Origin: Tubulanus polymorphus
Lineage: Eukaryota; Animalia; Nemertea
DNA: 64,000 nucleotides
NCBI RefSeq assembly: GCF_964204645.1
Contig: NC_134028.1
Coordinates: forward strand, 11,889,263-11,953,262
Direction: 5' to 3'
Each line of letters begins with the position of its first letter. Position 1 is the stretch's first letter. Made by a program: the position numbers and the translations under genes. Positions 7,864 to 24,320 of this stretch are shown piece by piece. Below the pieces are notes generated by a model. It worked only from the letters and a program-made list of their open reading frames with translations, searched no databases and was not told the DNA's origin.

Positions 7864-7984
7864 AGTAATTAGAATATGTGGCTTTCAGATCAGAGGACGA
7901 GAGGACGAGACACCACTCATCACCACAAGTAATTTTTTTTTTCCTACTCATCACCACAAGTAATTTTTTTTCCTAATAAATGGG
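7864..7984 (+). repeat. Left TIR of copy 1, with an internal tandem duplication of actcatcaccacaagtaat(T)n-cct
   Basis: Reverse complement of 24231-24320 apart from the duplication. Runs into the ATG of the 108-aa gene. Confidence 0.95.
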
Positions 7985-8306
7985 AGATAGAAAAGCATTC
8001 TTAGCAACAATAAATAACAGAATAAAACCAGCAAAAAAACAATTTGAAATAAAAAAGTTAGTTGATGTTACAAAAGAAATTGAACATAAAATATTGAAAT
8101 TAGAAAAGATAAAAACTAAATATGGAGAGAAAGTATCAGCTAATTTAAGCTACTGTAATGTTAGTACATCGCGAGAATTTAAAGTGTTTTTACCCGATAA
8201 ATGGGTTTCATTGAGTACGGAGGAATTGAAAGATTTAGTAGGATTTAAAATAATATATCATGGGAAAAATGAAGACGGTCATCATGATTTAGAAATTGTT
8301 GATTAA
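7980..8306 (+). CDS. 108-aa Polinton protein (TKYG motif); function unknown, possibly small nucleic-acid-binding
   Basis: TAAATG start inside the TIR. Homologous pseudogenes at 49390-49712, 32064-32337 and 54070-55940. Confidence 0.75.
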   Translation: MGDRKAFLATINNRIKPAKKQFEIKKLVDVTKEIEHKILKLEKIKTKYGEKVSANLSYCNVSTSREFKVFLPDKWVSLSTEELKDLVGFKIIYHGKNEDGHHDLEIVD

Positions 8307-8471
8307 ATTTTAAAAAAAATAAATTAATAAAAATAATGAATATCTAGAATCCGAAATGACTTATCTGGACAATTTAATTGCTCCACAGTGATAGACAAAA
8401 GTAGTGAGATGGTGCCGTATGGCACCCACATGGTGATATTCAATTATTTTTTTTGCTTTTTTTCTAAAATA

Positions 8472-22100: not shown

Positions 22101-24235
22101 GATGTTTTAGCTAATAGTTTAAAATCATATTTTCTTACATTTGCTTCATTCATAGCATTATATTCTTCTATTTCTTGATTAATTGTACCCAATTTCTTTG
22201 ATAATTGTTTTATAAATAGATGGGTATCATAGCCTGATAAATTATGAAATAATATTGGTACGAAATTAACTTTCTTAGCTTGTAAATTGCAATCTTCATG
22301 AGCAGCTCCACGATATTTTGAATTTAAATGATCATGATCTCTAACTTTTTTATCAAATGCATAAAAACGTTTTTCACAATAACAACAATGAGTTGCATAA
22401 TTAAAATCAATTTCATCTTCTTTTGTCATAACTATTCTTTTATTTTTGTTTAATAATTTTGCAAAATCACTTTCTAATTCAATCATTTTATCACAAAAAT
22501 CATTAACTACATTTTCACCTCTAAAAGAAATATATTGACTTTCATATAATTCGGCATAATTTGATTTTATGTAAATTCCATAAGCAGCAGCTCTTTGATG
22601 AACTTTTTTAATTGTATTTATAATTGGTGGGTCTTGAATTATATCTTCATTTAATTCACTTCCTTTATCCATTGATTTTAATAATTGCTTTTTGTTATAT
22701 ATTTCTTTTCTATCTTGATCAGTTAATTCTTTATTCAACGATTCAAAATCCCCATAAATTACAAATGGAACAATATTTTTAAATTTATGATTAGTAAATT
22801 TCAATTTATAATCTTTTTCTGTTGGCATTATTAATTTACAAAAATCTTTATTATCACATAATTCTTTATGTTTTAATAATGTATTCTCAGCCATAAATTT
22901 AGATAAACATTTTCTACATAGATAAATTTTACGATGATGATCACTTTCTGTTCTAAAGAATAAATCAATTTGTTTTAACCACATACAATGTTCATTTTCA
23001 TCTTTTTTGTAATATAACAAATCTATAGCATTTTCATCATCATAATATTCTGTTAAATATAAAGCTTCTAATGTATAATCTTTAATATTTTCACCTTTTG
23101 TCTTTGGTAATTGCATTAATTCGAATACATTTATTTTTAAATTATTAATTTTTTCTATTTTAGGAATCATTTTTATAGTTACTGGATATTGATCAATTTT
23201 ATATAATGTTTCATATTTCCGATAATCTGTTATTCTACAAACATTTTCCTGTGTTGGATGTAAACAACTAATAATTGACCATAGAAAACATTTATTATCT
23301 TCATTTTGAACATTTATTACTGCTTTTGTTGTAAACGGTAATTTGATATAACTTGATGCTTTCATATCCTTTTCTGTTGTAAAGTTTGAATCATTTTTAA
23401 ACATTTTATTACTTTTTGATGTTTTATTCCTTTTTGTATTATAAACATTTAAATCTAAATATATAATTTCATTCAATGTTAAACCAGAACCCTCAAAATA
23501 TCTTTCTTCAATATGACGTTTAAATTCATTTAATATTTTTTCTAACTTCTCTTTTATTTGTGTTTTTGAAATTATTTCTTCAGAGTGTGTTTGAATATTA
23601 TAATCCATTTTTTCTTCTGACTTTATAAAACTTACTTTCCCAGAGATACTAATTTTTGGATATTCAACATCTGTTATCAAATCTAGTAATTTTTCTATTA
23701 TTTCATTAAATGTACTATAATCTTCTATTGTTGTACCTTTAAAAAATCTAAATATAATAGCTGCAGGACCAATTTTACTATGTAATGTTTCTAAGATTTC
23801 AATTGTATCTTTTATTTCTAGTGAATCAATATAATTTCTAACATTTTCCATGTAAGGTTTATTTGAAATGGATTTAGTTTTTGAAGTTGATTCTTTTACT
23901 TGTTGAGGTTTATCATCAAAATAATCTATTCCTAAAATATTATTTCTCAAATTTTGATGGTGTTTTTCTGTTTCGAGATGTCTATTATAATTCCTTTTTG
24001 TTATAAATTCATCACAAACTTCACATTTTATTTCATTCACATTCATATTTTCTAATCGTTCTTTTCTTTCATTGGAATTTTCTGGAGTTTCAAAATCTAT
24101 TACATTTTTTATATGATTTGCAGTTTTTTCATGTCGTGTTTTATTAGATGTATCGATGTATTTTTTACAATAAGGGCAATAATATTGATTTTTATTGATA
24201 TTATTGTTTTCTAGTTGGTGTTCATTCTCCCCCAT
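19172..24235 (-). CDS. Protein-primed family B DNA polymerase (pPolB) with N-terminal zinc fingers, OTU-like protease motif, EndoVII-like domain and an intein
   Basis: Exo I YGDFES, Exo II FHNLSGYD, Exo III YLKSDV; pol motifs YIDANNLYG, KLMNNSFYGK, YFD[intein]TDS, RSKMY. Also NEDNKCFLWS...H (OTU-like) and RDHDHL...RGAAHEDCN (EndoVII-like). Confidence 0.97.
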   Translation of the reverse strand: MGENEHQLENNNINKNQYYCPYCKKYIDTSNKTRHEKTANHIKNVIDFETPENSNERKERLENMNVNEIKCEVCDEFITKRNYNRHLETEKHHQNLRNNILGIDYFDDKPQQVKESTSKTKSISNKPYMENVRNYIDSLEIKDTIEILETLHSKIGPAAIIFRFFKGTTIEDYSTFNEIIEKLLDLITDVEYPKISISGKVSFIKSEEKMDYNIQTHSEEIISKTQIKEKLEKILNEFKRHIEERYFEGSGLTLNEIIYLDLNVYNTKRNKTSKSNKMFKNDSNFTTEKDMKASSYIKLPFTTKAVINVQNEDNKCFLWSIISCLHPTQENVCRITDYRKYETLYKIDQYPVTIKMIPKIEKINNLKINVFELMQLPKTKGENIKDYTLEALYLTEYYDDENAIDLLYYKKDENEHCMWLKQIDLFFRTESDHHRKIYLCRKCLSKFMAENTLLKHKELCDNKDFCKLIMPTEKDYKLKFTNHKFKNIVPFVIYGDFESLNKELTDQDRKEIYNKKQLLKSMDKGSELNEDIIQDPPIINTIKKVHQRAAAYGIYIKSNYAELYESQYISFRGENVVNDFCDKMIELESDFAKLLNKNKRIVMTKEDEIDFNYATHCCYCEKRFYAFDKKVRDHDHLNSKYRGAAHEDCNLQAKKVNFVPILFHNLSGYDTHLFIKQLSKKLGTINQEIEEYNAMNEANVRKYDFKLLAKTSENYISFQFGCIRFLDSYRFLASSLDNLSKSLVDNDFIITRYYYPNDQDFKLLRYKGAIPYSFYKTHDDFNVTELLKDQFYDKLKEEYVKDEVFNRTLNIWNHFKMKNHGELVDLYLKSDVMILADIFEKFREVNLNHFNVDPCYCYSSPGLTWQCGLKYTNVELDLLKEPDMVLLFEKSIRGGISGVMGDRYFKANDEYKLLYIDANNLYGWAMMQPQPYKNFILTEVENGDKTDWESAIISLKDEAPIGYFFVVDLEYPENIKFKTRNLPYCPEHLTVDDSYLSEYQKKIKPKDHVFTEKLILTQNNKYNYIVHYRMLKFYLKQGMKLKKVHRYIEFNQSKWLEKYIDFNTQQRTISKTDFEKDFFKLMNNSFYGKTCENIRNRNDIELVNNSERLRHLQSSLRHLGNKRFEDYLTAVKLKRTSMKFNKPIFIGSTVLEISKLLMYDFYYNVLQPLFGEKHIEILYFDSVTADTPILLKYNNQILIRRISEIIPNQNKSYISYGEKELIQINGLMDVWTRNGWKKLKNIIRHKTNKKIYRVRTKLGFVDVTEDHSLIKRNGDEIKPTDIKIGDELLHKRFFQRMNHMSFDEIIDNIYNIEPETLEEKEYFIKGFFMGDGSAGVYKYVWGNKYCWYLCNQDLKLLERIKKFCEEVYSHKTFRIMDVMKSSAVYRILVNNPKDFAIEYNDEFYIHAIVKSNTSTKEKIVPDYILNSEYNLRKWFFIGFYAADGTKKFIKDKTITFAQKGKVAISGLNVLCSSLGFNMNIELIKSKPNCFNLRHVEKELTEEVKDLFEIYNPTDYVYDLSTDDGTFNSGFPLIQKNTDSYILKIKTNDITKDLKTLKHHFDFSNYPKDHELFSNDNKKIPGKFKDELEGDEMIEFVGIRSKMYSYRTKDHEAKKLKGITKHVVDKHIEFQDYIKCLYKSIVMKNKMNCLRSEDHEMYINEVEKTSLNPFDDKRHILDDGIKTLPYGY
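19628..20692 (-). mobile_element. Intein (355 aa, residues 1182-1536) with LAGLIDADG homing endonuclease
   Basis: Block A SVTADTP, block B VTEDHS, LAGLIDADG motifs FIKGFFMGDG and FFIGFYAADG, block F YVYDLST, end LIQKN followed by T. The paralogue at 30601-30620 reads YFDTDS uninterrupted. Confidence 0.96.
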
Positions 24236-24320
24236 TTATTAGGAAAAAAAATTACTTGTGGTGATGAGTGGTGTCTCGTCCTCTCGTCCTCTGATCTGAA
24301 AGCCACATATTCTAATTACT
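24231..24320 (-). repeat. Right TIR of copy 1; includes the pPolB upstream region and ATG
   Basis: Inverted match to 7864-7984. Confidence 0.95.

Follow-up and report, generated by a model that had tools for sequence, protein, structure and literature searches.

The 64-kb stretch of DNA analysed here (contig NC_134028.1; hereafter the window) contains a complete integrated Polinton or polinton-like virus (PLV) at positions 7864–24320 (16,457 bp), and each of its 15 gene starts is overlapped by a signal that has the form of a poxvirus late promoter. The signal is real, strong and specific to one clade of related elements. We favor virophage-style promoter mimicry as the explanation, at a rough probability of 0.65: the element would rely for its transcription on the RNA polymerase of a large cytoplasmic DNA virus infecting the same cell, the helper, whose late transcription is of the poxvirus type.

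TAAAT lies over the start codon at 15 of the 15 gene starts and is followed by G at 14, all of which read ATAAATG. The remaining start, at 17811, reads TAAAT-A-ATG; an older sister copy of the element in the window has plain TAAATG at the matching site. An earlier note on this DNA had reported ATAAATG at 14 of 15 starts, and all 15 of its coordinates proved correct with one correction, namely that the frame opened at 14149 is shut after 9 codons in the 7864–24320 copy, where the long frame opens at 14119. In the sister copy, TAAATG at 38789 matches 14149 and the frame runs on, so we treat 14149 as the homologous start; by a strict count, 13 of 15 long open reading frames (ORFs) begin at TAAATG. 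Other ATGs of the element follow TAA in 40 of 635 cases (6.3%) and ATAA in 14 of 635, and ORFs simulated with an order-2 Markov model give a background of 6.4%. The binomial probability is 2e-16 for 14 of 15 starts and 2e-14 for 13 of 15.

The signal is bipartite with fixed spacing. A run of five Ts located 8–20 nt upstream is present at 12 of the 15 starts, as compared with 1 of the 14 ATAAATG sites that are not starts; the earlier note had seen such runs at most starts, and the fixed spacing is an addition to it. When the starts are aligned on TAAAT, with the A of the usual ATG as position 0, A(−18), T(−14) and A(−4) each occur at 15 of 15 starts and T(−13) at 14. The bipartite pattern is matched 13 times in the element, 13 times in 27401–54300, and 0, 1 and 1 times in the three remaining stretches of the window. 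Where the ATG is shifted relative to TAAAT (17811 and the integrase of the related metagenome locus L004), the T-run stays in register with TAAAT rather than with the ATG and thus behaves as part of a promoter, not as a translation signal. The ATPase (10282) and integrase (11410) genes share an A-rich variant of the upstream part that is retained at the ATPase starts of loci L001–L005 and is, in this small sample, reminiscent of the vaccinia virus intermediate class.

The resemblance to the vaccinia late promoter, which the earlier note had proposed, agrees with published descriptions. As outlined in PMC11980589 and PMC5294985, that promoter consists of TAAAT, usually followed by G, overlapping the start codon, a spacer of 5–7 nt, and a T-rich part in which the T at the 10th base upstream is conserved. 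TAAAT(G/A) over the start codon, the spacer of 5–7 nt and a T-rich core are common to both; the best-kept T occupies the 9th–11th base in the element (13–15 of 15 starts) and the 10th base in vaccinia according to the account in PMC11980589. Vaccinia late promoters are reported to lose activity when their AAA is altered. Early-type poxvirus or mimivirus motifs were found upstream of none of the 15 starts, and the baculovirus motif DTAAG occurs anywhere within 70 nt upstream of 5.

Two other candidate signals were tried and rejected. A trans-splice acceptor would place AG next to the starts, and AG lies within 10 nt upstream of just 4 of 32 starts in the clade described below. An overlapping polyadenylation signal fails at most starts, with AATAAA at 6 of 15 and words of the TATAAA or AAATAA type at the rest; the first genes, moreover, have no upstream gene.

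The signal is confined to one group of relatives. Alignment of the capsid protein yielded 80 of 232 metagenome loci, 79 of which have ORFs homologous to genes of the window. These loci were initially grouped by capsid identity with the motif counts already seen, and a tree was built afterwards; in that tree the window and 14 loci form one clade with a Shimodaira–Hasegawa-like approximate likelihood ratio (SH-aLRT) support of 99, obtained by a quick method, and two further loci (L033 and L072) were assigned to it by identity (51–56%) alone. Of the homologous starts, 42 of 52 in the 16 loci of the clade have TAAATG, as against 1 of 262 in the other 63 loci; the clade counts come from related sequences and are not independent. 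The contrast does not follow base composition: outgroup loci of less than 40% GC have TAAATG at 0 of 44 starts, whereas clade loci of 30–44% GC have it at 15 of 19. When the starts of five genes were called more strictly, the base at −3 proved to be T, contrary to the Kozak preference, at 27 of 32 starts in the clade, whereas 25 of 27 starts in AT-rich outgroups have A there. In the 42 clade starts, T makes up a fraction of 0.95 at the 9th base upstream and 0.81 at the 10th. Across capsids that are 51–76% identical and loci whose GC content ranges from 20 to 44%, TAAAT and the T upstream at its fixed distance stay the same while the bases between them vary. These comparisons support a motif that is specific to the clade and does not reflect AT richness or Kozak-like bias.

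Gene order is reshuffled between loci, and accessory genes of the clade, which encode deoxynucleoside kinase (dNK) and HNH-like proteins, also bear the motif. One dNK gene with the motif lies in a close relative (L003:10343–10981); this type of gene suits replication away from the nuclear supply of nucleotides. In a wider capsid tree built with FastTree, the clade comprises 63 of 88 rows. The one capsid from a named animal, the bivalve Mactra antiquata (39% identity), is a member of the wider family and groups with loci that lack the motif. The capsids of cluster P0046 fall within the motif clade; their annotation assigns them to Bartonella isolates, on short contigs, and they probably represent contaminating animal DNA.

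The element is a Polinton in the broad sense, with pPolB and an rve integrase, terminal inverted repeats (TIRs) and a 6-bp target duplication, and a double-jelly-roll capsid and A32 ATPase. Its features are as follows; confidence of structure models is given as the predicted local distance difference test score (pLDDT).

7858–7863, plus strand: target-site duplication, left copy AACGCT; right copy at 24321–24326
7864–7940, plus strand: left TIR, 77 bp, identical to the right TIR
7980–8306, plus strand: 108-aa ORF with no assigned function, T-run and TAAATG; homolog in only one of the 80 loci, L003
8472–8840, minus strand: 122-aa ORF with a hydrophobic stretch, TAAATG and a weak T-run
8773–9378, minus strand: 201-aa ORF kept across the wider family, T-run and TAAATG
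9407–9672: non-coding repeat array of 11-bp and 97-bp units in the longest spacer
9674–10282, minus strand: A32-like packaging ATPase (Pox_A32, E=3.5e-13), A-rich upstream variant and TAAATG
10283–11410, minus strand: rve integrase with chromodomain (rve, E=2.5e-10; Chromo, E=8e-4), A-rich variant and TAAATG
11441–12688, minus strand: double-jelly-roll capsid (model pLDDT 90; Foldseek matches to the PBCV-1 and SGIV capsids, E=3e-18)
12713–14149, minus strand: coiled-coil protein with hydrophobic C-terminal stretches, 468 aa counted from 14119
14167–15555, minus strand: 462-aa conserved protein (g462), T-run and TAAATG; 1268 homologs, model pLDDT 84
15572–16006, minus strand: 144-aa two-helix membrane protein, T-run and TAAATG; weak SLATT likeness (NF033632, E=3e-4, 20.7 bits against a cut-off of 55)
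16026–16448, minus strand: 140-aa conserved protein with hydrophobic ends, T-run and TAAATG
16473–16694, minus strand: 73-aa conserved hydrophobic protein, T-run and TAAATG
16698–17036, minus strand: 112-aa ORF, T-run and TAAATG
17053–17811, minus strand: 252-aa ORF with TAAAT-A-ATG start; putative, probable minor capsid protein, judged by its size and beta-rich look
17880–19175, plus strand: 431-aa zinc-finger protein (zf-U1, E=1e-6), TAAATG start, divergent from 17811
19172–24235, minus strand: pPolB with polymerase motifs A, B and C; 54% to P0165, which bears PF03175
19628–20692, minus strand: LAGLIDADG intein, 355 aa, at motif C of pPolB
24244–24320, minus strand: right TIR, 77 bp

As the earlier note had described, the genes are very AT-rich (the GC content of the element is ~21–25%, and ~77% of it is AT) and most spacers are short. 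With 14149 taken as a start, 9 of 14 spacers measure 0–30 bp, two gene pairs overlap, and three spacers span 68–295 bp; most genes are arranged head to tail. The largest ORF besides pPolB encodes 468 aa. SLATT-like genes are proposed in a preprint as possible effectors of abortive infection (10.64898/2026.10.13.758929). In all eight gene pairs compared, dN/dS lies between 0.07 and 0.39, which indicates that the family copied itself under purifying selection and must therefore have had some means of expression. The absence of an encoded RNA polymerase claimed by the earlier note held within the searches made: no RNA polymerase, protease or capping enzyme was found by Pfam (15 of 15 proteins) or NCBIfam (12 of 15), and several ORFs have no assigned function. 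The adenain/Ulp1 cysteine protease that characterizes Maverick groups 1 and 2 (Polintoviricetes, adintoviruses) likewise had no Pfam or NCBIfam match; the fold search for it covered g462 only. The confidently modelled fold of g462 had no match in three libraries, be it to a polymerase, a protease or any other protein, a result that shows neither absence nor novelty.

The window holds further copies of the same family.

27459–44155, plus strand: second (sister) copy, decayed and partly duplicated, in the opposite orientation, 72–96% nucleotide identity; its starts keep the motif
48956–53835: third copy, partial, with a TIR-like end, small genes, ATPase and integrase; its starts keep the motif

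Together with HNH-like gene remnants at 45894–46199 and 47015–47461, these two decayed copies show that one family has inserted repeatedly in this part of the DNA (27459–53835). Short palindromic elements at 7527–7690 and 24716–24905 have ends that resemble the Polinton TIR; the latter encloses an 18S rRNA fragment (Rfam match 24625–24853), which may point to a lophotrochozoan host, and is followed by a remnant of the pPolB N-terminus. An ATAC microsatellite of ~298 copies in host DNA occupies 846–2036.

Under promoter mimicry, the RNA polymerase and the late factors would come from the helper virus and would initiate at every TAAAT. Transcription would begin inside the AAA, and slippage would add a 5′ poly(A) head; in poxviruses, the late poly(A) heads arise when the polymerase slips on three Ts of the template where transcription starts (PMC6831550). 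The product would be one nearly leaderless mRNA per gene, in which the T at −3 never enters the message and the start codon is preceded by a run of A, and this would explain the odd T at −3. Upon infection by the helper, the genes of the element would be switched on; its pPolB would then copy it, its ATPase and capsid would package it, and its integrase would insert it anew. For this, an integrated copy in the nucleus would first have to come within reach of a polymerase in the cytoplasm. There is precedent for reading a helper from a promoter: as reported in PMC10945749, virophage promoters follow the late motif of the helper and predict which helper induces them, and endogenous mavirus-like elements (EMALEs) with the late motif of Cafeteria roenbergensis virus (CroV) were the sole type induced by CroV.

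Four other explanations were weighed against this mechanism. Chance, in the form of AT richness or Kozak-like A bias, draws on the ~77% AT of the element; we hold it refuted by the 6.3% background, by the counts in AT-rich outgroups (0 of 44) and GC-richer clade loci (15 of 19), and by TAAATG at 51 of 397 starts in mostly AT-rich giant-virus loci. Nuclear reading by the host polymerase, perhaps guided by an activator of the element such as the 431-aa zinc-finger protein, would require no helper. The element does integrate, its integrase has a chromodomain, it encodes zinc-finger proteins of unassigned target, and a word of the TATAAA or AATAAA type abuts every start. However, a TATA box that touches the ATG leaves no space for the usual 25–30 nt (PMC5294985), and just one of the 15 starts has a TATA box at the distance proper to RNA polymerase II. 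A T at −3 is ill suited to scanning, and the outgroup relatives retain A in this position; AATAAA, at 5.2 per kb in coding strands, is not depleted. We consider host transcription distinctly unlikely.

Alternatively, the motif might have no role in transcription and mark the junctions or recombination sites of gene cassettes, as a word that duplication has spread and kept uniform. This would fit its presence at the head of unrelated, apparently mobile genes (dNK and HNH-like), the reshuffled gene order among loci, and the fact that the TIR terminates in the motif's T-run. It is nevertheless very unlikely, given that conservation is limited to TAAAT and the T at its set distance, with variable bases in between, and that the motif is oriented to the strand of each gene, divergent pairs included. 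Also very unlikely is a translation signal, in which TAA-ATG would serve stop–start coupling or reinitiation on a polycistronic RNA. At the joint of integrase and ATPase, a stop is indeed followed by ATG at a spacer of 0, and the head-to-tail arrangement of most genes would suit such a signal, but a stop–start junction exists at only 1 of 15 starts. The motif is also found at the first genes by both TIRs and at the divergent pair, where there is no upstream gene, and the T-run tracks TAAAT when the ATG moves.

Several observations weigh against promoter mimicry or against a poxvirus as the helper, besides the non-independence of the clade counts. No helper virus was found. Queries with the capsid returned no clade member from a collection of viral contigs, and a strict scan of these contigs for the motif gave six matches that were chance-like, with the motif at none of the other starts on the same contigs. 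Searches for a helper through its genes fared similarly: dNK led to one giant-virus-like locus at 37% and no helper was identified, and the HNH-like gene gave no lead. A prokaryote genome collection returned three outgroup contigs, all of which lack the motif. The ORFs of the element without an assigned function leave room for a transcription factor of its own. TTTTTNT is depleted in coding strands, with observed-to-expected ratios of 0.54 in the window and 0.30 in the clade, but also of 0.69–0.71 in outgroups, and the use of AATAAA does not clearly separate the clade from outgroups; both codon-shuffle tests are weakly informative. TATATA, the late initiator of African swine fever virus, is present at 6 of 15 starts, so that an asfar-like or other helper is possible. 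Finally, the recorded hosts of poxviruses are all vertebrates or insects (PMC12447285).

The intein of pPolB bears on the same question. It contains both endonuclease motifs and is absent from the pPolB of the sister copy at 30191–30961. It groups with inteins of five other pPolBs (SH-aLRT 99), and its next kin are inteins inserted at the same site in RNA-primed PolBs. This kinship suggests exchange of inteins between Polintons and giant viruses and makes contact with large viruses plausible; no report of such exchange was found in those of the listed papers that were checked for it. The viral loci fetched with the intein are mostly giant-virus contigs, mostly AT-rich, and their 51 TAAATG among 397 starts argue that those viruses are not the source of the promoter. 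A precomputed PF08408 domain, which we take to be typical of poxvirus PolB, is found in none of 120 intein-bearing proteins among the matches listed, and a rescan gave one weak match. Thus the one link that the element's genes offer to large viruses leads to non-pox giant viruses, and the intein itself may have no tie to the motif clade. Accordingly, of the pox-like helper suggested by the earlier note, the pox-type signal stands, and the identity of the helper as a poxvirus does not: no helper was found, and the intein's kin are non-pox viruses without the TAAATG habit. That the helper belongs to the poxvirus order is possible, though we lean somewhat against it.

The mode of gene expression in animal Polintons and their possible need for a helper are questions of long standing that a clade-wide promoter fitting a cytoplasmic viral polymerase makes testable. 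Among the literature matches listed, in a search that left most subscription journals outside its coverage, there was no account of TAAATG promoters in Polintons, and the word promoter is absent from the main texts of the Polinton and PLV papers that were searched for it. Promoter mimicry by virophages and PLVs is already known in protists. The restriction of the motif to one clade suggests that dependence on a helper arose once, in a family whose other members retain ordinary Kozak-type starts. The promoter also predicts that these hosts harbor a large virus, as yet unseen, whose late genes are transcribed in the pox manner; the motif could be used as bait for it. Protection of the host by the element is unlikely; if true, it would constitute a heritable defence of virus against virus in animals, so far known only in protists. 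One may go further and picture the clade as animal endogenous PLVs that are virophages of an undiscovered poxvirus lineage in non-insect invertebrates, with integrated copies that wake on poxvirus infection, blunt it and provide a heritable defence; we think this full scenario unlikely.

Mavirus carries pPolB and an rve integrase, as does the element. Mavirus and the EMALE virophages of Cafeteria, as characterized in PMC10945749, also share with it integration into the host genome and a single late-type promoter motif. They differ in the motif itself, since the late motif of CroV is centred on TCTA (PMC5294985), and in the host, which is probably an animal here. In contrast to the vaccinia promoter, the motif here heads every gene of a 16-kb integrated element in which no RNA polymerase was found; the invariant A before TAAAT and the A at −18 also set it apart, as does the lack of an early-type motif (0 of 15). 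PLVs associated with poxviruses exist and were found in occlusion bodies of entomopoxviruses (PMC11296320). Compared by description, they are likewise small capsid-coding elements, there tied to a pox-type helper; they encode a cysteine protease, and an integrase is either lacking or replaced by a tyrosine recombinase, whereas this element has an rve integrase and no detected protease. The terms promoter, motif and TAAAT are absent from the main text of that paper. Animal PLV-type Polintons outside Maverick groups 1 and 2 (bioRxiv 10.64898/2026.06.19.733378) resemble the element in being integrated in animals with no protease detected. The yeast cytoplasmic linear plasmids pGKL1/2 (PMC6831550) have their own RNA polymerase and capping enzyme and an ATNTGA upstream motif, and they lack a capsid and an integrase, unlike the element; they are nonetheless pPolB elements with A-run initiators, whose transcripts carry 5′ poly(A) heads made by slippage.

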